The notes: generated by a model from the sequence alone, not told the origin. A stretch of DNA of 64,000 nt from TPA_inf: Saccharomyces (GCA_000146045.2 BK006947.3:480001-544000); one strand, 5' to 3'. Shown: positions 1-49,583, numbered from the stretch's first letter. Numbers and translations are program-made.

Positions 1-991
1 CGACAGCTTCAAACCATATATGGAGTACCACGATGCTTCGCACTTGAGGAACCGTAACATAAGCAAAGCGGACCAGGTTGAAAGCACTGAAGTGATGGAA
101 CAGTTTACGCAATGGTCGAATTATAAGATGAGGTCTCGCTCTCCTACCATAAACGCAAAGCCAATTCGACACACTTCACAACGAAGAACAGACTTTACCA
201 GCAAAAATGAACTCTCCAAGTTCAGCAAGAATCATAATTTCATTTTTCACAAAGGGTTTTTGAAGAGGCAACACTCCATACGCAGGGAAGACAGGCAAGC
301 AAAGGTACGGTCAAGATTCAGGAGCAAGAAGGAGCTGACATCCGTTTTGAACTATATAGAACTGGAACAAATGGATATTGCAAATGTCCTGGCTTCGCAA
401 CCGGTAAACTTACACGCTATCAGAAATCTCACTAGCAGGGACCCTGCGGTAACTCCTATCCCATTTTTAAGAAGCCAGATGTATGCAACCAGTAGTCGTC
501 CACCGTATCTAAGGAACCGCTCCATAAGTAGGAAACTACCCAAATCACAACCAGGTAGTCTCCCGACGACTATGCCTGCGACGGCGACGAAAACAATTAA
601 ACAGAATTCAACGACCCCAACCACAAGATCTGTTTATAACAAGAATGTGGGGCGGTCCAATACTTCCCCTAGTGTGTTGTACCACCCAAAAAGAAGAGGA
701 AAATTGAACACCAAATCGCATGCAAGAAAGGAGCAACTGCTGTTGGAACTGTGGAGAGAATACTTAATGCTGGTTATAACACAGAGGACGCAACTGCGCC
801 TGACTTTGCTTTGCTCTCCGGGTTCAGCATCGAATGAAAGCTCTGTCTGCTCTTCTAACGCCAGCGACTTAGACATGTCCCTTTTATCTACTCCTTCAAG
901 TCTCTTCCAGATGGCAGGTGAGACCAAAAGCAATCCTATAATTATACCCGACAGTCAAGACGATAGTATACTTAGTAGCGACCCCTTTTAA
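1..991 (+). CDS. NIS1: 3' part of a bud-neck/septin-interacting protein gene. The ORF is open to the window edge, and the first in-window ATG at 20 is probably not the true start.
   Basis: The frame is open from nt 2 and stops at 989-991. The Ser/Thr/Asn-rich protein sits immediately upstream of APJ1 in the same orientation, as expected for YNL078W. Identity rests on synteny, so it is weaker than for the neighbours. Confidence 0.55.
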   Translation, partial: DSFKPYMEYHDASHLRNRNISKADQVESTEVMEQFTQWSNYKMRSRSPTINAKPIRHTSQRRTDFTSKNELSKFSKNHNFIFHKGFLKRQHSIRREDRQAKVRSRFRSKKELTSVLNYIELEQMDIANVLASQPVNLHAIRNLTSRDPAVTPIPFLRSQMYATSSRPPYLRNRSISRKLPKSQPGSLPTTMPATATKTIKQNSTTPTTRSVYNKNVGRSNTSPSVLYHPKRRGKLNTKSHARKEQLLLELWREYLMLVITQRTQLRLTLLCSPGSASNESSVCSSNASDLDMSLLSTPSSLFQMAGETKSNPIIIPDSQDDSILSSDPF

Positions 992-6765: not shown

Positions 6766-8124
6766 TTATGTATCACAACTATTAAATTCAGTTGAAAATC
6801 CACCATTTGAAACTTTTTTCTTAAGCACTTCACTGACTTTTTCAACTCTTAACTCATGTTCGGAGGATAACGTATTAGAAGAAGACACGTAAGAAGGATC
6901 TGTTGATAAAGGCATGGGCTTGCCTATTGCTGTATATGACGAAGATGTCGATAAAGGCGTCTGGGTTGCTAATTCGGGATTACTTGCCAAGTTTGCACTT
7001 GAACGCAAAGACGAACTTAACGGAAAGGAAGGATCTAGCATGTCCATGGTTAAATCTTCTTCTTCGCTGTCACTTGATTCTATTTGGAACTTGGGATTCT
7101 TGTGCATGTTTGCAACAGGGTCAACGTTTGATAAAATGGATTGTCTTTGAAATAGTATCGAAGATGACCGGTTTTTTGGGGATTTTGCATTGTTATTAGC
7201 ATTATTTGAATATTGTCTCGCAGATTGCTGCGGAGATACATAAGGCGAAGTAGCTGGTAATTCTGTAGTTTTGATGAAGGGGTTGGAAAATGTCGTTGTT
7301 GCTGACGATGAAGAATAGGCTTGTGGTGGGGACCTCTTGAGGATGAAAGGGCATGAGTACGCTTGGGATTTCATAGGTGGTCTAGATGTAGGCGTATTAT
7401 TGGCCTGTGCAAGTTTTTCATCATTCAACATATCGACGTAAGAGTAGAATCTTAGTATTCTGGAGTTTGGTTCGCCATTTGAAGTTGTGGTGGTCATCCC
7501 GGTGTTATTGATGTTATTCAAGGTGGGACGTGTAGCCGCAGAATGCGAATGAGATCTCGAAAGTTTAAGATCTGGCGATGCTGGCGAAGATTCTGATGAG
7601 GGAAGAGTGGCACTATTCGTTCTAGCCAACAGGGCCATGTTTAGGCTCACAGCAGAGGAAGGTCTTCTTGAATAAACCATATCGACATCGCTCAGGTCAG
7701 TGTTCTCATCGTTCACTATTGAGCAACTAGCATCTAAAGCTGGAGCCACCGAGTTTTCTAACGTACGACGGCGATGGTGATGATTTTGCATGTTGCAAAT
7801 GGGGTTCAAGATGTACTCTTGATGTGCTAGCGAGCTTGTGGTGGAGTTCGACGCCGACCTAGACGTTGGTATGACGTTATCTAGCGGAGAGGAAACATTA
7901 TTGGAGTTCTTCCTCAACGATGGAGTTCTAACCTCGCTACCAGAGATAGGTATCGGAGAAATGGTCTGCAAGTTGTAAAAACTATTAGATCTTGAGCTAT
8001 GAGATGTGTTGGAGGCGGAAACCGGAGGTTGAAGAAATAAATCGTTTGAACTTGCCTCTTGCACGGTTCTTTCGAAGATAAAAGAAGGGTTGCTGTTGTT
8101 CGAATTTGACTTGTACACGCACAT
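6766..8124 (-). CDS. MLF3: Serine-rich protein, a multicopy suppressor of leflunomide sensitivity, 452 aa.
   Basis: The track ORF starts at a GTG at 8157. The first in-frame ATG (MCVYKSNSNN...) is at 8124 and gives 452 aa, matching YNL074C. Confidence 0.8.
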   Translation of the reverse strand: MCVYKSNSNNSNPSFIFERTVQEASSNDLFLQPPVSASNTSHSSRSNSFYNLQTISPIPISGSEVRTPSLRKNSNNVSSPLDNVIPTSRSASNSTTSSLAHQEYILNPICNMQNHHHRRRTLENSVAPALDASCSIVNDENTDLSDVDMVYSRRPSSAVSLNMALLARTNSATLPSSESSPASPDLKLSRSHSHSAATRPTLNNINNTGMTTTTSNGEPNSRILRFYSYVDMLNDEKLAQANNTPTSRPPMKSQAYSCPFILKRSPPQAYSSSSATTTFSNPFIKTTELPATSPYVSPQQSARQYSNNANNNAKSPKNRSSSILFQRQSILSNVDPVANMHKNPKFQIESSDSEEEDLTMDMLDPSFPLSSSLRSSANLASNPELATQTPLSTSSSYTAIGKPMPLSTDPSYVSSSNTLSSEHELRVEKVSEVLKKKVSNGGFSTEFNSCDT

Positions 8125-37993: not shown

Positions 37994-38845
37994 TCAAGCG
38001 TCGAAGGACAAAGACCAACCTAGCTTGTGAACAGGTTCAGACAACTTCAAAGCATCGAAAGAGGAACCGACACCCAGAGTGACGCCAGGTCTTAACAATT
38101 GCTTGTAAGCCAAAGTGACAATACCGGAATCGGACACCTTAGCCTTAACTTGGGAAGATGCATCAGGCAAATATCTAGTGGCGAATTCGATGTTGACATT
38201 GGAGTTAGGTAGTTTGCAGTTCATTGTAGCCTTAGCACCGACCTGTAAAAAGGCGTTGACGTTTTGGAAGAAGTCAACGGTAGTTATTTGCTCGTTGTTC
38301 AATGTAGCGCCCAAGGAGTAGTCTTTGGCGAAATAACTTAAAGCCATGGCATAACGAGAAATGGAACCGGCGCTGATATCGTAACCAAACTCTGCGCCAC
38401 CAACAATACCTTCGTGGGCCATAGTTAAGTCACCAACAAATGTTGGTGACTTCAAACACAAGTCAAAGGCACCTCTTGCGGTGAAGAAAGGTTGTGTGAA
38501 CGTAGTGTTTAAGACGGCGGACTTGGCGACGCCTGGAGTCAAAGAAGTGATCAATTCGTTCTTTAGACCAGGGGTCAAGTTGGCAAACTCTAATTTGGTT
38601 TGCAAGTTGTTTGTGTTAGACCAGCCTTGAGTTAGACCCAAGCCGGTTTGCTTGTCATTCAACTTTGCTTCCACGTTAGTAGACAGTGGACCGTCTTTGA
38701 CAGGCTGTTTAGCCTTCAATGAGAACTTAATGCCATTGGCGGTTGTTGTTTGCACATCAAAGGCAGCTGGGGTAGCATGATAGAAATCCTTGTTCAATAG
38801 GTCATTGATATTTCTGGAGATATCGCTGTAAACTGGAGGAGACAT
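37994..38845 (-). CDS. POR1: Mitochondrial outer-membrane porin (VDAC1), 283 aa.
   Basis: The sequence MSPPVYSDISRNINDLLNKDFYHATPAAFDVQTTTANGIKFSLKAKQPV... is recognisable. It has high-expression codon bias. Confidence 0.95.
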   Translation of the reverse strand: MSPPVYSDISRNINDLLNKDFYHATPAAFDVQTTTANGIKFSLKAKQPVKDGPLSTNVEAKLNDKQTGLGLTQGWSNTNNLQTKLEFANLTPGLKNELITSLTPGVAKSAVLNTTFTQPFFTARGAFDLCLKSPTFVGDLTMAHEGIVGGAEFGYDISAGSISRYAMALSYFAKDYSLGATLNNEQITTVDFFQNVNAFLQVGAKATMNCKLPNSNVNIEFATRYLPDASSQVKAKVSDSGIVTLAYKQLLRPGVTLGVGSSFDALKLSEPVHKLGWSLSFDA

Positions 38846-39098
38846 TGTTGAGAGGTTGGTTTGATTTTTGCTTTGGGTACGCTTGGCTGTTTCGTGTTGG
38901 GAGAATCCGTAGCACTAATGAGTAGTGGAACGAGTTGGGGGTAGTTATATAGTAGATCAACTCGTGCTCTGCTGGCTATAAAAGGGGTTCTTTGTTGAGG
39001 AACGGCCGAAATGGCGGTGTTTGATTGGGCCGCAGCCGGCAAAAAGCACCGGAACCGTGAAAAAAGCTCGTCTGACGCGGAAACGTGCGGCAAAAAAT

Positions 39099-39162
39099 CT
39101 CCGCGACGGGGAATTGAACCCCGATCTGGCACGCGACAAGCGCCCATTCTGACCATTAAACT
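39099..39162 (-). pseudogene. 3' fragment (tRNA positions 9-72) of a tRNA-Asp(GUC) gene, cut by the Ty1 5' LTR.
   Basis: The minus strand reads AGTTTAATGGTCAGAATGGGCGCTTGTCGCGTGCCAGATCGGGGTTCAATTCCCCGTCGCGGAG, which is yeast tRNA-Asp from nucleotide 9 to the discriminator base. The anticodon GTC and the B box GGTTCAATTCC are intact. A T6 terminator follows (plus-strand aaaaaa at 39092-39097). The first 8 nt (TCCGTGAT) are missing here. Confidence 0.85.
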
Positions 39163-39496
39163 TGTTGGAATAAAAATCAACTATCATCTACTAACTAGTA
39201 TTTACGTTACTAGTATATTATCATATACGGTGTTAGAAGATGACGCAAATGATGAGAAATAGTCATCTAAATTAGTGGAAGCTGAAACGCAAGGATTGAT
39301 AATGTAATAGGATCAATGAATATTAACATATAAAACGATGATAATAATATTTATAGAATTGTGTAGAATTACAGATTTCCTTTTATGGATTCCTAAATCC
39401 TCGAGGAGAACTTCTAGTATATTCTGTATACCTAATATTATAGCCTTTATCAACAATGGAATCCCAACAATTATCTCAACATTCACCCATTTCTCA
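39163..39496 (+). repeat. Ty1 5' LTR (delta), 334 bp.
   Basis: It begins TGTTGGAATAAAAATCAACTATCATCTACTAAC and ends CACCCATTTCTCA. It contains the TYA ATG at 39456. Confidence 0.95.
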
Positions 39497-40778
39497 TGGT
39501 AGCGCCTGTGCTTCGGTTACTTCTAAGGAAGTCCACACAAATCAAGATCCGTTAGACGTTTCAGCTTCCAAAATTCAAGAATATGATAAGGCTTCCACTA
39601 AGGCTAACTCTCAACAGACAACAACACCTGCTTCATCAGCTGTTCCAGAGAACCCCCATCATGCCTCTCCTCAAACTGCTCAGTCACATTCACCACAGAA
39701 TGGGCCGTACCCACAGCAGTGCATGATGACCCAAAACCAAGCCAATCCATCTGATTGGTCATTTTACGGACGCCCATCTATGATTCCGTATACACCTTAT
39801 CAAATGTCGCCTATGTACTTTCCACCTGGGCCACATTCACAGTTTCCGCAGTATCCATCATCAGTTGGAACGCCTCTGAGCACTCCATCACCTGAGTCAG
39901 GTAATACATTTACTGATTCATCCTCAGCGGACTCTGATATGACATCCACTAAAAAATATGTCAGACCACCACCAATGTTAACCTCACCTAATGACTTTCT
40001 AAATTGGGTTAAAACATACATCAAATTTTTACAAAACTCGAATCTCGGTGGTATTATTCCGACAGTAAACGGAAAACCCGTACGTCAGATCACTGATGAT
40101 GAACTCACCTTCTTGTATAACACTTTTCAAATATTTGCTCCATCTCAATTCCTACCTACCTGGGTCAAAGACATCCTATCCGTTGATTATACGGATATCA
40201 TGAAAATTCTTTCCAAAAGTATTGAAAAAATGCAATCTGATACCCAAGAGGCAAACGACATTGTGACCCTGGCAAATTTGCAATATAATGGCAGTACACC
40301 TGCAGATGCATTTGAAACAAAAGTCACAAACATTATCGACAGACTGAACAATAATGGCATTCATATCAATAACAAGGTCGCATGCCAATTAATTATGAGA
40401 GGTCTATCTGGCGAATATAAATTTTTACGCTACACACGTCATCGACATCTAAATATGACAGTCGCTGAACTGTTCTTAGATATCCATGCTATTTATGAAG
40501 AACAACAGGGATCGAGAAACAGCAAACCTAATTACAGGAGAAATCCGAGTGATGAGAAGAATGATTCTCGCAGCTATACAAATACAACCAAACCCAAAGT
40601 TATAGCTCGGAATCCTCAAAAAACAAATAATTCGAAATCGAAAACAGCCAGGGCTCACAATGTATCCACATCTAATAACTCTCCCAGCACGGACAACGAT
40701 TCCATCAGTAAATCAACTACTGAACCGATTCAATTGAACAATAAGCACGACCTTCATCTTAGGCCAGAAACTTACTGA
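39456..40778 (+). CDS. Ty1 TYA (Gag) ORF, 440 aa.
   Basis: The ATG lies inside the LTR. The protein is the canonical Ty1 Gag. Confidence 0.95.
40758..40764 (+). promoter_or_regulatory. Ty1 +1 programmed ribosomal frameshift heptamer CTTAGGC.
   Basis: CTT-AGG-C is in the TYA frame near the end of TYA. The +1 frame from GGC (40762) is open through to 44706. Confidence 0.9.
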
Positions 40779-43700
40779 ATCTACAGTAAATCATACTAAT
40801 CATTCTGATGATGAACTCCCTGGACACCTCCTTCTCGATTCAGGAGCATCACGAACCCTTATAAGATCTGCTCATCACATACACTCAGCATCATCTAATC
40901 CTGACATAAACGTAGTTGATGCTCAAAAAAGAAATATACCAATTAACGCTATTGGTGACCTACAATTTCACTTCCAGGACAACACCAAAACATCAATAAA
41001 GGTATTGCACACTCCTAACATAGCCTATGACTTACTCAGTTTGAATGAATTGGCTGCAGTAGATATCACAGCATGCTTTACCAAAAACGTCTTAGAACGA
41101 TCTGACGGCACTGTACTTGCACCTATCGTAAAATATGGAGACTTTTACTGGGTATCTAAAAAGTACTTGCTTCCATCAAATATCTCCGTACCCACCATCA
41201 ATAATGTCCATACAAGTGAAAGTACACGCAAATATCCTTATCCTTTCATTCATCGAATGCTTGCGCATGCCAATGCACAGACAATTCGATACTCACTTAA
41301 AAATAACACCATCACGTATTTTAACGAATCAGATGTCGACTGGTCTAGTGCTATTGACTATCAATGTCCTGATTGTTTAATCGGCAAAAGCACCAAACAC
41401 AGACATATCAAAGGTTCACGACTAAAATACCAAAATTCATACGAACCCTTTCAATACCTACATACTGACATATTTGGTCCAGTTCACAACCTACCAAAGA
41501 GTGCACCATCCTATTTCATCTCATTTACTGATGAGACAACAAAATTCCGTTGGGTTTATCCATTACACGACCGTCGCGAGGACTCTATCCTCGATGTTTT
41601 TACTACGATACTAGCTTTTATTAAGAACCAGTTTCAGGCCAGTGTCTTGGTTATACAAATGGACCGTGGTTCTGAGTATACTAACAGAACTCTCCATAAA
41701 TTCCTTGAAAAAAATGGTATAACTCCATGCTATACAACCACAGCGGATTCCCGAGCACATGGAGTCGCTGAACGGCTCAACCGTACCTTATTAGATGACT
41801 GCCGTACTCAACTGCAATGTAGTGGTTTACCGAACCATTTATGGTTCTCTGCAATCGAATTTTCTACTATTGTGAGAAATTCACTAGCTTCACCTAAAAG
41901 CAAAAAATCTGCAAGACAACATGCTGGCTTGGCAGGACTTGATATCAGTACTTTGTTACCTTTCGGTCAACCTGTTATCGTCAATGATCACAACCCTAAC
42001 TCCAAAATACATCCTCGTGGCATCCCAGGCTACGCTCTACATCCGTCTCGAAACTCTTATGGATATATCATCTATCTTCCATCCTTAAAGAAGACAGTAG
42101 ATACAACTAACTATGTTATTCTTCAGGGCAAGGAATCCAGATTAGATCAATTCAATTACGACGCACTCACTTTCGATGAAGACTTAAACCGTTTAACTGC
42201 TTCATATCAATCGTTCATTGCGTCAAATGAGATCCAACAATCCGATGATCTTAACTTCCAATCTGACATCGAACTACATCCTGAGCAACCGAGAAATGTC
42301 CTTTCAAAAGCTGTGAGTCCAACCGATTCCACACCTCCGTCAACTCATACTGAAGATTCGAAACGTGTTTCTAAAACCAATATTCGCGCACCCAGAGAAG
42401 TTGATCCCAACATATCTAAATCTGATATCCTTCCATCAAAGAAGAGATCTAGCACCCCCCAAATTTCCGATATCGAGAGTACTGGTTCGGGTGGTATGCA
42501 TAGATTAGATGTTCCTTTACTTGCTCCCATGTCCCAATCTAACACACATGAATCGTCGCACACCAGTAAATCTAAAGATTTCAGACACTCAGACTCGTAC
42601 AGTGACAATGAGACTAATCATACAAACGTACCAATATCCAGTACGGGTGGTACCAATAATAAAACTGTTCCGCAGACAAGCGAACAGGAGACTGAGAAAA
42701 GGATTATACACCGTTCACCTTCGATCGATACTTCCTCATCAGAAAGTAATTCACTACACCACGTCGTTCCTATCAAAACGTCAGATACCTGTCCTAAGGA
42801 GAATACAGAGGAATCTATAATTGCTGATCTTCCACTTCCCGATCTGCCTCCAGAACCTCCTACCAAATTATCAGACTCCTTTAAAGAACTTCCACCGATC
42901 AATTCTCGTCAAACTAATTCCAGTTTGGGTGGTATTGGTGACTCTAATGCCTATACTACTATCAACAGTAAGAAAAGATCATTAGAAGATAATGAAACTG
43001 AAATTAAGGTATCACGAGACACATGGAATACTAAGAATATGCGTAGTTTAGAACCTCCGAGATCGAAGAAACGAATTCACCTGATTGCAGCTGTAAAAGC
43101 AGTAAAATCAATCAAACCAATACGGACAACCTTACGATACGATGAGGCAATCACCTATAATAAAGATATTAAAGAAAAAGAAAAATATATCGAGGCATAC
43201 CACAAAGAAGTCAATCAACTGTTGAAGATGAAAACTTGGGACACTGACAAATATTATGACAGAAAAGAAATAGACCCTAAAAGAGTAATAAATTCAATGT
43301 TTATCTTCAACAGGAAACGTGACGGTACTCATAAAGCTAGATTTGTTGCAAGAGGTGATATTCAGCATCCTGACACTTACGACTCAGGCATGCAATCCAA
43401 TACCGTACATCACTATGCATTGATGACATCCCTGTCACTTGCATTAGACAATAACTACTATATTACACAATTAGACATATCTTCGGCATATTTGTATGCA
43501 GACATCAAAGAAGAATTATACATAAGACCTCCACCACATTTAGGAATGAATGATAAGTTGATACGTTTGAAGAAATCACTTTATGGTTTGAAACAAAGTG
43601 GTGCAAACTGGTATGAAACGATCAAATCATATCTGATTGAACAATGTGATATGGAAGAAGTTCGCGGATGGTCATGCGTATTTAAGAATAGTCAAGTAAC

Positions 43701-44706
43701 AATTTGCTTATTCGTTGATGATATGATATTGTTCAGCAAAGACTTAAATGCAAATAAGAAAATCATAACAACACTCAAGAAACAATACGATACAAAGATA
43801 ATAAATCTGGGTGAAAGTGATAACGAAATTCAGTACGACATACTTGGATTAGAGATCAAATATCAAAGAAGCAAGTACATGAAATTAGGTATGGAAAAAT
43901 CTTTGACAGAAAAATTACCCAAACTAAACGTTCATTTAAATCCAAAAGGAAAAAAACTTAGCGCTCCAGGTCAACCAGGTCTTTATATAGACCAGGATGA
44001 ACTAGAAATAGATGAAGATGAATACAAAGAGAAGGTACATGAAATGCAAAAGTTGATTGGTCTAGCTTCATATGTTGGATATAAATTTAGATTTGACTTA
44101 CTATACTACATCAACACACTTGCTCAACATATACTATTCCCCTCTAGGCAAGTTTTAGACATGACATATGAGTTAATACAATTCATGTGGGACACTAGAG
44201 ATAAACAACTGATATGGCACAAAAACAAACCTACCAAGCCAGATAATAAACTAGTCGCAATAAGCGATGCTTCATATGGTAACCAACCATATTACAAGTC
44301 ACAAATTGGTAACATTTTCCTACTCAACGGAAAAGTGATTGGAGGAAAGTCGACAAAGGCTTCGTTAACATGCACTTCAACTACAGAAGCAGAAATACAC
44401 GCAGTCAGTGAAGCTATTCCGCTATTGAATAACCTCAGTCACCTTGTGCAAGAACTTAACAAGAAACCAATTATTAAAGGCTTACTTACTGATAGTAGAT
44501 CAACGATCAGTATAATTAAGTCTACAAATGAAGAGAAATTTAGAAACAGATTTTTTGGCACAAAGGCAATGAGACTTAGAGATGAAGTATCAGGTAATAA
44601 TTTATACGTATACTACATCGAGACCAAGAAGAACATTGCTGATGTGATGACAAAACCTCTTCCGATAAAAACATTTAAACTATTAACTAACAAATGGATT
44701 CATTAG
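40762..44706 (+). CDS. Ty1 TYB (Pol: protease, integrase, reverse transcriptase, RNase H). It is expressed as a Gag-Pol fusion by +1 frameshifting.
   Basis: The +1 frame is continuous from the frameshift site to the TAG at 44704-44706. The integrase zinc-finger and DDE region and the RT YVDD-type motif (FVDDM) are visible. Confidence 0.9.
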
Positions 44707-44728
44707 ATCTATTACATTATGGGTGGTA

Positions 44729-45062
44729 TGTTGGAATAAAAATCAACTATCATCTACTAACTAGTATTTACGTTACTAGTATATTATCATATACGGTGTT
44801 AGAAGATGACGCAAATGATGAGAAATAGTCATCTAAATTAGTGGAAGCTGAAACGCAAGGATTGATAATGTAATAGGATCAATGAATATTAACATATAAA
44901 ACGATGATAATAATATTTATAGAATTGTGTAGAATTACAGATTTCCTTTTATGGATTCCTAAATCCTCGAGGAGAACTTCTAGTATATTCTGTATACCTA
45001 ATATTATAGCCTTTATCAACAATGGAATCCCAACAATTATCTCAACATTCACCCATTTCTCA
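44729..45062 (+). repeat. Ty1 3' LTR (delta), 334 bp. By eye it is identical to the 5' LTR.
   Basis: It has the same sequence as 39163-39496 as far as I can compare manually. It is preceded by the polypurine tract. Confidence 0.9.
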
Positions 45063-45075
45063 AAACTATCACGGA
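45063..45075 (-). pseudogene. 5' fragment (positions 1-13, TCCGTGATAGTTT) of the same tRNA-Asp(GUC) gene, on the far side of Ty1.
   Basis: The plus strand reads AAACTATCACGGA directly after the 3' LTR. Its reverse complement is the tRNA-Asp 5' end. AAACT is repeated at both Ty1 junctions as the target-site duplication. Confidence 0.8.
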
Positions 45076-46085
45076 ATACTAATCGAAGACTAGTGACGCA
45101 CGTTACGCTATAGCAACAACGTCACAAGGATAACGTTAGTAGTTTTTTGGAAGGACAATTGCAAACTATATGTAAACGAACGAAGACACACAGTCCAAAG
45201 CTGTAACAACAACCACATATATAAATGGTAGTCTTCTAGGAAACTTCACTGTAAGATTAGATACGTAGAGGTGAAAGACAAGTTGAAGTTTGGATCGGAA
45301 GTTCCATTAATATTTGGGTAAGTAAGTTCGCCGCGCGGCAGAAACGGTGAGTACTTACTCACTTTTGTTCTAACTACAACAAAAAACTGTAAAAGTGGTG
45401 TAAGGTTTACGTTCCGTTTTGGTTGCAAATCATCAGCCCTGGTTTAAGCTTTATGTCCAACATTGGTTAGCGAAGGCACCGTACTGGTCTCGATGTCGGT
45501 GAGCAGGGGCGGCGAAATTCATTCCAATCTTGGATAATATATATGTATATATCTATACACGCGGCGAGATCTTGTCCTCTAATTTCCCTTCGCTAAATCA
45601 TTAAGAGGTCATTCATGAAGTTAATTCAGCACCAAAGTTGGACTGTTAGACACGAGATACACATTGCAGTCCAAATGTGCAGATTTTTCAGATAATTGTC
45701 GTCGCACAAGACTGCCCCTCCCGTCCTCAGACAGACACAAAATTAGATTTTACGTTTACATAAAGATGTACATAACTTGAAAAAACGTTAATCCCTCTTA
45801 AATTTAGACCTTGTAAGTCTTCCTGGCCACTCTTTGTGATATATTGTAGTGCAATATATTGATTCGTTCTTCTTATTTCTTTGTTCTTAGGCATTTCCGC
45901 TTTAGAAAATTCGTTGGGTGGTTTCTGCGACGGGTATCCCCTTCGATTTTGCATAATGATCTTCAATTCTACAACTAAAATCAAGTAGATACAGGAAAAT
46001 ATTCCATAAATTATAGTGTAAATCGCCCTGTATACACCTTATCGTTTCATCTCAGGCAAGTTAAAGCATTTGGGAAACGTGCTAG

Positions 46086-49000
46086 ATGACAGAAGAAGAT
46101 AGAAAGCTCACTGTAGAGACAGAAACAGTTGAGGCACCCGTGGCAAATAATCTTTTATTGTCGAATAACAGTAATGTAGTAGCACCTAATCCTTCTATTC
46201 CCTCTGCCTCCACATCTACCTCTCCGCTACACAGGGAAATAGTTGATGATTCTGTCGCTACTGCTAACACCACCAGCAACGTTGTACAGCATAATTTGCC
46301 CACCATAGATAACAATTTAATGGATTCCGATGCCACGTCACATAATCAAGATCATTGGCATTCAGACATAAACAGGGCAGGAACATCAATGTCAACGAGT
46401 GATATCCCAACAGATTTACATTTAGAACATATCGGCTCTGTTTCATCAACTAATAATAATAGTAACAATGCCCTAATCAACCACAACCCTCTGTCATCTC
46501 ATCTTTCCAATCCGTCATCTTCATTACGAAACAAGAAGAGCTCTTTGTTGGTAGCTTCTAACCCTGCGTTTGCTTCAGATGTTGAACTCTCGAAGAAGAA
46601 ACCTGCCGTCATCTCCAATAATATGCCTACAAGTAACATTGCCCTTTATCAAACAGCGAGATCGGCGAATATTCATGGTCCATCATCAACTTCCGCATCT
46701 AAAGCGTTCAGAAAGGCTTCGGCCTTCTCCAATAACACGGCACCCAGCACTAGTAATAACATCGGCTCGAATACACCTCCAGCTCCTCTTTTACCTCTAC
46801 CTTCACTATCACAACAAAATAAGCCAAAAATAATAGAGAGGCCCACAATGCACGTCACTAATTCAAGAGAAATACTTTTAGGTGAAAACCTGTTAGATGA
46901 TACAAAGGCGAAGAATGCTCCCGCGAATTCAACCACACACGATAATGGTCCAGTAGCAAATGATGGGCTGCGTATACCGAATCACTCGAACGCAGATGAT
47001 AATGAAAATAACAACAAAATGAAGAAGAATAAAAACATTAATAGTGGGAAAAATGAACGTAATGATGACACCAGCAAAATATGCACTACATCTACTAAAA
47101 CAGCGCCTTCAACCGCACCTTTGGGCAGTACAGACAATACTCAGGCTCTCACTGCTAGTGTCTCCAGCAGTAATGCTGACAATCACAATAATAACAAGAA
47201 GAAAACCAGCAGCAACAACAACGGCAATAACAGTAATAGTGCATCCAATAAAACCAATGCCGATATCAAGAATTCTAACGCCGACTTGAGCGCTTCTACC
47301 TCTAACAATAATGCAATAAATGACGACTCACATGAGAGTAATTCAGAAAAACCAACAAAGGCGGATTTTTTCGCTGCAAGGCTGGCTACAGCTGTAGGTG
47401 AAAATGAAATTAGTGATTCTGAGGAAACATTTGTTTATGAATCGGCAGCTAATTCGACTAAAAACCTAATATTTCCTGACTCCTCCAGCCAGCAGCAGCA
47501 GCAGCAACAGCAACCTCCAAAACAACAGCAACAGCAACAAAATCATGGAATAACCTCAAAGATAAGCGCCCCATTGCTAAACAATAACAAAAAATTATTA
47601 AGCCGACTGAAAAATTCAAGACATATTAGCACTGGTGCCATATTGAATAACACAATCGCGACTATAAGCACAAATCCGAACTTGAATTCTAATGTGATGC
47701 AGAACAATAACAATCTGATGTCGGGACACAATCACCTGGACGAGTTGAGCAGTATAAAACAGGAGCCACCGCATCAATTGCAGCAGCAGCAACCACCAAT
47801 GGATGTACAATCGGTAGATTCGTATACCTCTGACAACCCAGACAGCAATGTTATTGCCAAGTCGCCTGATAAGAGGTCAAGCTTAGTATCCCTATCTAAA
47901 GTTTCTCCACATTTACTTTCATCCACATCAAGCAACGGTAACACAATATCGTGTCCCAATGTTGCCACAAATTCGCAGGAATTGGAACCAAACAATGATA
48001 TTTCAACGAAGAAATCTCTTTCCAATTCTACTTTGAGACATTCCTCTGCTAATAGAAATTCTAATTATGGTGACAACAAAAGGCCTCTTAGAACAACAGT
48101 GTCAAAGATATTTGATTCAAACCCTAATGGAGCTCCTTTACGGAGATACTCTGGGGTACCGGATCACGTTAATCTAGAAGATTACATCGAACAGCCGCAT
48201 AATTATCCAACAATGCAAAATAGTGTGAAAAAGGATGAATTTTATAACAGCAGGAACAATAAGTTTCCCCATGGTTTAAACTTTTATGGTGATAACAATG
48301 TTATTGAAGAGGAAAATAATGGTGACTCGTCTAATGTAAATCGACCGCAACACACTAACCTTCAGCATGAGTTTATTCCAGAAGATAACGAAAGTGATGA
48401 AAACGATATTCACTCCATGTTTTATTATAATCATAAGAACGATTTAGAAACAAAACCGCTAATATCCGATTATGGTGAAGATGAAGACGTAGATGATTAT
48501 GATCGCCCAAATGCTACTTTCAACAGTTACTATGGCTCAGCATCCAACACGCACGAACTTCCATTACATGGAAGGATGCCTTCAAGATCAAATAATGATT
48601 ACTACGATTTTATGGTTGGCAACAATACTGGCAATAACAACCAATTGAATGAATATACCCCCTTAAGAATGAAACGTGGTCAAAGACACCTATCAAGAAC
48701 AAACAATAGCATAATGAATGGTAGCATCCATATGAATGGTAACGATGACGTTACCCATTCCAATATCAATAATAACGATATTGTTGGTTACTCACCGCAC
48801 AACTTTTACTCAAGGAAGTCCCCATTTGTGAAAGTAAAGAATTTTCTTTATCTTGCATTTGTTATATCATCACTATTGATGACAGGATTCATTCTGGGAT
48901 TTTTATTGGCCACTAATAAAGAACTACAAGATGTAGACGTGGTAGTGATGGATAATGTGATTTCAAGTTCGGACGAGTTGATCTTCGACATCACAGTAAG

Positions 49001-49583
49001 TGCTTTTAATCCAGGATTCTTCAGTATAAGCGTTTCCCAAGTCGATTTGGACATTTTTGCAAAAAGTTCTTACCTGAAGTGCGATTCTAATGGTGACTGT
49101 ACAGTAATGGAACAGGAACGGAAAATTTTACAAATAACGACAAATCTTTCGTTAGTTGAAGAGAGTGCTAATAATGATATTAGTGGTGGGAACATAGAGA
49201 CGGTATTACTAGGAACCGCTAAAAAACTAGAGACACCATTAAAGTTCCAGGGCGGCGCATTTAATAGGAACTACGATGTGTCAGTCTCGAGTGTCAAGCT
49301 TTTAAGTCCTGGGTCTCGTGAAGCCAAGCACGAAAACGACGATGATGACGATGATGATGGCGACGATGGTGACGATGAAAACAATACTAATGAAAGACAA
49401 TACAAAAGCAAACCAAATGCTAGAGATGACAAAGAAGATGATACTAAAAAATGGAAGCTACTAATCAAGCATGATTACGAATTGATAGTCCGTGGAAGCA
49501 TGAAGTATGAGGTGCCCTTTTTCAATACGCAAAAATCTACGGCTATTCAAAAGGATTCCATGGTCCATCCTGGTAAGAAGTGA
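46086..49583 (+). CDS. VAC7: Vacuolar membrane protein and regulator of Fab1 PI3P 5-kinase, 1165 aa. It is Asn/Ser/Gln-rich with a C-terminal TM segment.
   Basis: ATG at 46086. Length and position match YNL054W. The sequence is low-complexity with a poly-Q tract and one TM helix (LYLAFVISSLLMTGFILGFLLA). Confidence 0.9.
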   Translation: MTEEDRKLTVETETVEAPVANNLLLSNNSNVVAPNPSIPSASTSTSPLHREIVDDSVATANTTSNVVQHNLPTIDNNLMDSDATSHNQDHWHSDINRAGTSMSTSDIPTDLHLEHIGSVSSTNNNSNNALINHNPLSSHLSNPSSSLRNKKSSLLVASNPAFASDVELSKKKPAVISNNMPTSNIALYQTARSANIHGPSSTSASKAFRKASAFSNNTAPSTSNNIGSNTPPAPLLPLPSLSQQNKPKIIERPTMHVTNSREILLGENLLDDTKAKNAPANSTTHDNGPVANDGLRIPNHSNADDNENNNKMKKNKNINSGKNERNDDTSKICTTSTKTAPSTAPLGSTDNTQALTASVSSSNADNHNNNKKKTSSNNNGNNSNSASNKTNADIKNSNADLSASTSNNNAINDDSHESNSEKPTKADFFAARLATAVGENEISDSEETFVYESAANSTKNLIFPDSSSQQQQQQQQPPKQQQQQQNHGITSKISAPLLNNNKKLLSRLKNSRHISTGAILNNTIATISTNPNLNSNVMQNNNNLMSGHNHLDELSSIKQEPPHQLQQQQPPMDVQSVDSYTSDNPDSNVIAKSPDKRSSLVSLSKVSPHLLSSTSSNGNTISCPNVATNSQELEPNNDISTKKSLSNSTLRHSSANRNSNYGDNKRPLRTTVSKIFDSNPNGAPLRRYSGVPDHVNLEDYIEQPHNYPTMQNSVKKDEFYNSRNNKFPHGLNFYGDNNVIEEENNGDSSNVNRPQHTNLQHEFIPEDNESDENDIHSMFYYNHKNDLETKPLISDYGEDEDVDDYDRPNATFNSYYGSASNTHELPLHGRMPSRSNNDYYDFMVGNNTGNNNQLNEYTPLRMKRGQRHLSRTNNSIMNGSIHMNGNDDVTHSNINNNDIVGYSPHNFYSRKSPFVKVKNFLYLAFVISSLLMTGFILGFLLATNKELQDVDVVVMDNVISSSDELIFDITVSAFNPGFFSISVSQVDLDIFAKSSYLKCDSNGDCTVMEQERKILQITTNLSLVEESANNDISGGNIETVLLGTAKKLETPLKFQGGAFNRNYDVSVSSVKLLSPGSREAKHENDDDDDDDGDDGDDENNTNERQYKSKPNARDDKEDDTKKWKLLIKHDYELIVRGSMKYEVPFFNTQKSTAIQKDSMVHPGKK

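Follow-up and report, generated by a model that had tools for sequence, protein, structure and literature searches.

The region analysed here, referred to as the window, is a stretch of 64,000 nucleotides (nt), BK006947.3:480001-544000 of assembly GCA_000146045.2, and all coordinates are counted from its first nucleotide. It belongs to chromosome XIV of Saccharomyces cerevisiae S288C, an assignment based on the neighbouring Arp5 and porin genes and on the exact matches of Gag-Pol, Gag and Vac7p to S288C entries. Between POR1 (YNL055C) and VAC7 (YNL054W) lies tD(GUC)N, a nuclear copy of the tRNA-Asp(GUC) gene, which is split by a full-length Ty1 element, YNLWTy1-2 (YNL054W-A/B). The element spans 5,900 bp on the plus strand, inverted relative to the tRNA gene, with its 5' long terminal repeat (LTR) facing the 3' tRNA fragment and POR1. 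As it stands in S288C, tD(GUC)N is a disrupted gene, that is, a pseudogene (Table 1).

Table 1. Features of the split tD(GUC)N locus and its surroundings (window coordinates; PBS, primer-binding site; PPT, polypurine tract; ORF, open reading frame; aa, amino acids; Pol III, RNA polymerase III).
Feature	Position	Strand	Basis
ARP5 (yeast Arp5)	32668-34971	-	ORF
POR1 (mitochondrial porin of yeast)	37994-38845	-	ORF
Pol III terminator of the tRNA-Asp gene, six T (T6), ...CGCGGAG A TTTTTT GCC	39092..39097	-	Direct reading; T5 or T6 in Ty1-free alleles
3' fragment of tD(GUC)N, nt 9-72 (A-box nt 9-19, anticodon, B box)	39099..39162	-	64/64 match, Rfam, B-box scan
B box GGTTCAATTCC, intact	39120..39110	-	Direct reading, B-box motif scan
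Anticodon GTC, intact	39137..39135	-	Direct reading
Target-site duplication, left copy AAACT (tRNA nt 13..9)	39158..39162	.	Single copy in empty-site alleles
Ty1 element YNLWTy1-2	39163-45062	+	
Ty1 5' LTR (delta), 334 bp, TGTTGG...TCTCA	39163..39496	+	334/334 against 3' LTR
TYA (Gag) ORF, 440 aa, YNL054W-A	39456..40778	+	ORF list; Q12470 exact
Presumed PBS TGGTAGCGCC, complementary to initiator tRNA-Met 3' end	39497..39506	+	Directly after 5' LTR
+1 ribosomal frameshift heptamer CTTAGGC	40758..40764	+	Sole occurrence in element; Gag frame, next codon in Pol frame
TYB (Pol) frame, Gag-Pol YNL054W-B, protease-integrase-reverse transcriptase (PR-IN-RT)	40762..44706	+	Reconstruction; Q99337 exact; Pfam
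Presumed PPT GGGTGGTA	44721..44728	+	Directly before 3' LTR
Ty1 3' LTR, 334 bp	44729..45062	+	Identity to 5' LTR
Target-site duplication, right copy AAACT	45063..45067	.	Direct reading
5' fragment of tD(GUC)N, nt 1-13	45063..45075	-	13/13 match; collinear with intact alleles
Orphaned native tRNA upstream region (expected place of start site and TFIIIB), including GTCTT 45090..45086 at -15..-11	45076..45130	-	Alignment of excised window with eight Ty1-free alleles
VAC7	46086-49583		Identical to Vac7p NP_014344.3 (exact-sequence look-up)

The junctions were read against a 72-nt yeast tRNA-Asp(GUC) reference, which proved to be the natural allele of eight other strains. On the minus strand, the 64 nt beside the 5' LTR (AGTTTAATGGTCAGAATGGGCGCTTGTCGCGTGCCAGATCGGGGTTCAATTCCCCGTCGCGGAG, beginning with AGTTTAATGG and ending with GTCGCGGAG) equal tRNA nucleotides 9-72 without a mismatch, and the 13 nt beside the 3' LTR (TCCGTGATAGTTT) equal nucleotides 1-13. 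The two pieces are collinear and overlap in AGTTT (nucleotides 9-13), which appears on the plus strand as two perfect copies of AAACT that directly adjoin the LTR ends and form the 5-bp target-site duplication. The LTR/tRNA junction on the minus strand reads ...TTATTCCAACA / AGTTTAATGG, that is, the reverse complement of the LTR start followed by the tRNA from nucleotide 9 on, and can also be written TTCCAACA / AGTTTAATGG. The two junctions unique to this locus are ...TTTTTATTCCAACA / AGTTTAATGGTCAG... (LTR to tRNA nucleotide 9 onward) and ...TCCGTGATAGTTT / TGAGAAATGGGTG... (tRNA nucleotides 1-13 to LTR). Exact, collinear matches of 64 and 13 nt with this overlap are far beyond chance and, together with the positive excision test described next, rule out a fortuitous similarity or a misreading of coordinates.

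ARAGORN finds no tRNA gene in the intact 64-kb window. The Rfam tRNA model RF00005 gives one above-threshold match (39107-39162, minus strand, 34.8 bits) that covers model positions 9-63 only, and therefore the acceptor stem and 5' end are absent. A contiguous cloverleaf of about 72 nt with anticodon GTC is thus not present at the S288C locus. Removing 39163-45067 in silico restores it: the excised sequence is a perfect 72-nt gene that ARAGORN calls as tRNA-Asp(gtc) with a full cloverleaf. The same gene exists in nature. Among public assemblies found by exact look-up of the POR1 protein, POR1 and VAC7 are separated by about 1.3-1.7 kb in eight chromosomes or contigs of S. cerevisiae (L001, L003, L005-L010), and no Ty1 lies between them. 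Each of the eight has a tRNA-Asp(gtc) at the orthologous site by ARAGORN, identical to the excised S288C sequence over all 72 nt, with matching flanks and a single copy of the 5-bp target. An earlier, sequence-only reading of the window had described these tRNA pieces, the shared pentamer and the intact anticodon, B box and terminator, had concluded that a Ty1 interrupts the A-box region and leaves the gene non-functional, and had predicted both the outcome of the excision and the intact gene in strains lacking this Ty1. The present results agree with it on all of these points.

YNLWTy1-2 is structurally intact, and it appears young because its two LTRs, each 334 bp with TG...CA termini, are identical. 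It has the attributes of Ty1 (Ty1/copia, Pseudoviridae): LTRs, a 5-bp duplication, a PBS and PPT, a +1 overlap of TYA and TYB with CTTAGGC, the copia-type domain order, and a Gag of the Ty1 type. The PBS for initiator tRNA-Met and the PPT were assigned from established Ty1 biology. The reconstructed Gag-Pol (1,749 aa, no internal stop) is identical to UniProt Q99337 / NP_001268465.1, "Transposon Ty1-NL2 Gag-Pol polyprotein", and Gag is an exact match to Q12470, "Transposon Ty1-NL2 Gag polyprotein". Pfam domains on Gag-Pol are TYA (17-400, 769 bits), the protease beta-barrel Pol_BBD (459-533), the integrase core rve (663-763) and RVT_2 (1275-1449).

The Ty1-NL2 Gag-Pol shares only 95.5-97% identity with the Gag-Pol proteins of four other Ty1 elements in S288C, which are about 99% alike in Gag, and it has a deletion of six residues (IESDHD, after residue 933). 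Its differences cluster at the Gag N-terminus, in the C-terminal/linker region of the integrase and, in some comparisons, in the C-terminal reverse transcriptase/RNase H (residues 1-100, ~900-1200 and ~1400-1749; element 39456-44706). This pattern suggests that Ty1-NL2 is a mosaic or a variant Ty1 subfamily.

The 3' fragment retains, at their native spacing, the T6 terminator, the B box and nucleotides 9-19 of the A box, and the tRNA T8 is replaced by an A from the LTR end. Severed from it are the upstream region with the native start site and the acceptor strand on the 5' side (nucleotides 1-8). The 13-nt 5' stub, 5.9 kb away, remains joined to that start site and the DNA upstream of it, and this side of the split holds A-box nucleotides 8-13, the duplicated pentamer being shared. 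By structure, the locus cannot give rise to a functional tRNA-Asp. The loss is presumably tolerated in S288C because that strain has many other tD(GUC) copies.

The insertion was already known, as the sequence-only reading had suspected, and the present analysis is a correct rediscovery: Patterson et al. 2019 (Genome Res 29:1298; PMC6673722) place YNLWTy1-2 within tD(GUC)N. Phrase searches of the literature for genes interrupted or disrupted by Ty1 returned unrelated cases only. According to PMC6673722, tD(GUC)N was bound by Tfc1 in Harismendy et al. 2003, Brf1 was absent from it both in that study and in Patterson et al., and Ty3 integrase was absent as well; Ty3 insertions there were very few (0.67 +/- 0.35). 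That account describes the insertion as "effectively remov[ing] the A-box", a wording that our junctions correct: the A box is split at the duplication, not removed, and 10 of its 11 positions stay with the B box. In all other respects, the locus of PMC6673722 and the one described here show no substantive difference. The retained A-box positions fit the reported TFIIIC binding and make the reported absence of TFIIIB less self-evident.

We therefore considered whether the 3' fragment might still be a weak Pol III unit, in which TFIIIC on the A-box remainder and the B box would place TFIIIB on the AT-rich beginning of the LTR, giving an LTR-tRNA(9-72) chimera that ends at T6. The sequence-only reading had raised such a chimera. 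The retained boxes, their native spacing and the terminator are compatible with that proposal, as is the reported Tfc1 occupancy, and by our own reading the minus strand of the LTR has a TATA-like stretch (...TATATGATAATATACTAGTAA...) about 30 bp upstream of the predicted start. Initiation by Pol III, in contrast, is opposed by the published chromatin immunoprecipitation (ChIP): Brf1 was not seen at the locus in either of the two independent studies (PMC6673722), and Ty3, which needs TFIIIB, integrates there next to never. In addition, the anticodon and T arms of the hypothetical transcript would fold, whereas its acceptor stem is absent and it folds no better than shuffled sequences (z = 0.09). 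Lacking the 5' acceptor strand, it could not mature into tRNA-Asp; it would be unprocessable and probably unstable. On balance, we regard transcription of this kind as unlikely.

Contigs that carry the insertion were sought through the S288C Vac7 allele, and all 24 that were examined are consistent with it. Among these 24, both junctions recur in the long assemblies L011 and L012 and seven similar contigs, as they do in two assemblies from the POR1 look-up, L002 and L004, whose Ty1 is 99.86-99.98% identical to that of the window. Short-read Logan contigs (L014 and 13 similar ones) start within the 3' LTR and cross the junction between the LTR and the tRNA 5' piece. We encountered neither S288C-lineage reads lacking the junctions nor Ty1-free strains lacking a contiguous tRNA-Asp. 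The insertion is real, precise and linked to the S288C haplotype.

The empty alleles also bear on how the element arrived. Recombination with resident elements is one route by which Ty1 cDNA can reach the genome (PMC5911963), and YNLWTy1-2 might have come in this way, through homologous recombination or gene conversion involving an LTR already present, the tRNA pieces being older debris. Yet in all eight Ty1-free alleles the gene is uninterrupted, with no solo delta inside it or next to it, which speaks strongly against recombination into an older solo LTR. Identical LTRs flanked by a matching 5-bp duplication are, moreover, the signature of a single integration and not of recombination between different elements. 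This route is very improbable, although later conversion of internal Ty1 sequence may have taken place and would leave the insertion site unchanged. An assembly or cloning artefact, such as a Ty1 mis-joined in the reference, has a negligible probability and can be set aside: Ty1 repeats are often mis-assembled, and L013 has a gap of Ns where the Ty1 is expected, but the junctions are the same base for base in independent long-read assemblies (L002/L011, L004, L012 and the seven similar contigs), the junction of the 3' LTR with the tRNA 5' piece recurs in short-read contigs, the duplication is perfect, and removal of the Ty1 yields the natural allele.

The same tRNA gene is a target of a second Ty family. 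Six of the eight Ty1-free strains (L001, L003, L006, L007, L008 and L010) carry a solo LTR of Ty3 (sigma) of 341 bp, TGTTGTA...ACAACA, inverted relative to the tRNA gene and flanked by a GTCTT duplication at -15..-11 from tRNA nucleotide 1. It occupies 7321-7661 in L001 and equivalent places in the other five, and the S288C counterpart (45086-45090) is empty. The gene is therefore polymorphic for two Ty families. Since Ty3 integrates at sites of TFIIIB assembly, classically at the Pol III start site (PMC5911963), a sigma at this position indicates that the ancestral tD(GUC)N promoter was active and that the intact gene assembles TFIIIB in nature. Sigma inserts just upstream and leaves the gene intact, whereas S288C has a disruptive Ty1 and no sigma. 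Of the other loci fetched, L009 alone has neither Ty1 nor sigma at the tRNA gene, and it thus most resembles the state before insertion.

Three small features of the Ty1-free alleles were also seen. Upstream of the tRNA gene, where others have sigma, L005 contains TTTGTTT-G11-T18-ATTACATTTTGAATACAC (~7620-7675). This stretch is unlikely to be biology and more probably reflects a homopolymer artefact or a sigma that was collapsed or wrongly assembled. The terminator that follows the tRNA gene has five T (T5) in L001 and six (T6) in the remaining alleles, including S288C (alignment columns ~1439-1445), and L008 differs in length by 1 bp farther downstream; these two differences are small, and are either polymorphisms in length or errors of sequencing.

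Pol III tethers the Ty1 integrase, whose interactions with Rpc40, Rpc53, Rpc34 and Rpc31 are the subject of a review (PMC5911963). About 90% of Ty1 insertions fall on phased nucleosomes within a window of about 1 kb upstream of Pol III genes, and the gene body is depleted of nucleosomes (PMC5911963, PMC3545840), in line with the premise of the sequence-only reading that Ty1 usually integrates upstream of such genes and not inside them. YNLWTy1-2 resembles these canonical insertions, which involve tethering through Pol III subunits such as AC40/Rpc40, in its family, its 5-bp duplication and the presence of the tRNA gene as the only nearby Pol III target. It differs in position, at +9..+13 of a transcribed and normally nucleosome-depleted gene body rather than on an upstream nucleosome, and it therefore destroys its own target gene. 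Within the window, ARAGORN and a gathering-threshold Rfam scan found no other tRNA or Pol III-type RNA, and BLAST with delta, Ty3 sigma and the Ty1 internal region, together with a repeat search, found no other Ty-related sequence. The disrupted tRNA gene is thus the only plausible Pol III "beacon" for the element, and a neighbouring Pol III target or older Ty debris as the true target can be discounted in the 64 kb.

We propose that a Pol III-tethered integrase cut tD(GUC)N with a stagger at nucleotides 9-13, a stretch that lies within the A box and on the 5' side of the D stem. The staggered cut duplicated AGTTT while the full-length Ty1 entered in the orientation opposite to the gene. The event is most readily understood as normal targeting to Pol III that, as a rare exception, went off register and hit a gene body normally free of nucleosomes; this reading is favoured because the window holds no Pol III target besides this tRNA gene and no Ty sequence besides this Ty1. 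According to the literature, the 3' piece that was left still recruits TFIIIC and not TFIIIB. Taken jointly, that tD(GUC)N was split at nucleotides 9-13 by integrase-mediated insertion of YNLWTy1-2, in the S288C haplotype only, through off-register Pol III targeting and with loss of function of the locus, is the best explanation and one that we hold with high confidence.

No finding contradicts the structural account. Three points weigh against other parts of the explanation. The reason that PMC6673722 gives for the state of the locus, removal of the A box, conflicts with the sequence, in which nearly all of the A box lies beside the B box. The functional part draws on the ChIP of others, and "no Brf1" and "few Ty3 insertions" could in part be artefacts of mappability, reads mapping poorly because the LTR, in which the start site and the footprint of TFIIIB are predicted, and the adjoining tRNA sequence both exist in multiple copies. 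Finally, the commentary in PMC3545840 states that many de novo Ty1 insertions were obtained at every tRNA gene except two, and tD(GUC)N is not among the two exceptions that it names.

A residual role of the 3' fragment can be considered in the light of the extra-TFIIIC (ETC) sites of yeast, which bind TFIIIC without TFIIIB or Pol III and are conserved extended B-box sites in intergenic DNA. These sites were reportedly described by Moqtaderi and Struhl in 2004, a study that PMC6673722 cites. The 3' fragment is like them in its intact B box and in the reported presence of Tfc1 and absence of Brf1 (PMC6673722). It differs in being the recent, strain-specific product of a gene disruption, derived from a normal tRNA gene that is intact in other strains. 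By analogy, the fragment may work like an ETC site while standing outside the conserved set. It is conceivable, if rather doubtful, that it persists as a transposon-made, ETC-like TFIIIC platform, possibly separating the POR1 promoter from the Ty1 5' LTR as a chromatin boundary, or as a low-level Pol III unit whose unstable chimeras escaped the published ChIP owing to poor mapping of the region. If true, this would be a natural example of TFIIIC-only sites arising from tRNA genes.

YNLWTy1-2 in tD(GUC)N is a textbook exception to the "safe-haven" targeting of Ty1, because the element destroyed the very Pol III gene that attracted it. To the published description, our analysis adds the junctions at base level and the proof, drawn from natural alleles, of a former empty site; it also shows that the insertion is linked to the S288C haplotype and that the tRNA gene is polymorphic for sigma. 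That an almost complete A box stands beside an intact B box is a small correction, which makes the reported state of TFIIIC without TFIIIB slightly more interesting. One tRNA gene usually counted in the S288C set is non-functional, which is relevant to models of tRNA gene copy number, to calculations of the tRNA adaptation index (tAI) and to analyses of Pol III ChIP in which tD(GUC)N is taken for a normal gene. Beyond this bookkeeping the significance is small, and no new question is opened.

Among the neighbouring genes, a search for relatives of the VAC7 product in the PDB found none. On the other side, the Ty1 5' LTR starts 318 bp upstream of the POR1 ATG, the two being divergently transcribed (38846-39162), and the 3' tRNA fragment lies 253 bp upstream of that ATG. 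The POR1 upstream region in S288C is thus cut off by the Ty1 just past the dead tRNA fragment. From this arrangement, effects on POR1 expression are possible, either through loss of tRNA-gene-mediated silencing or through an enhancer effect of the Ty.

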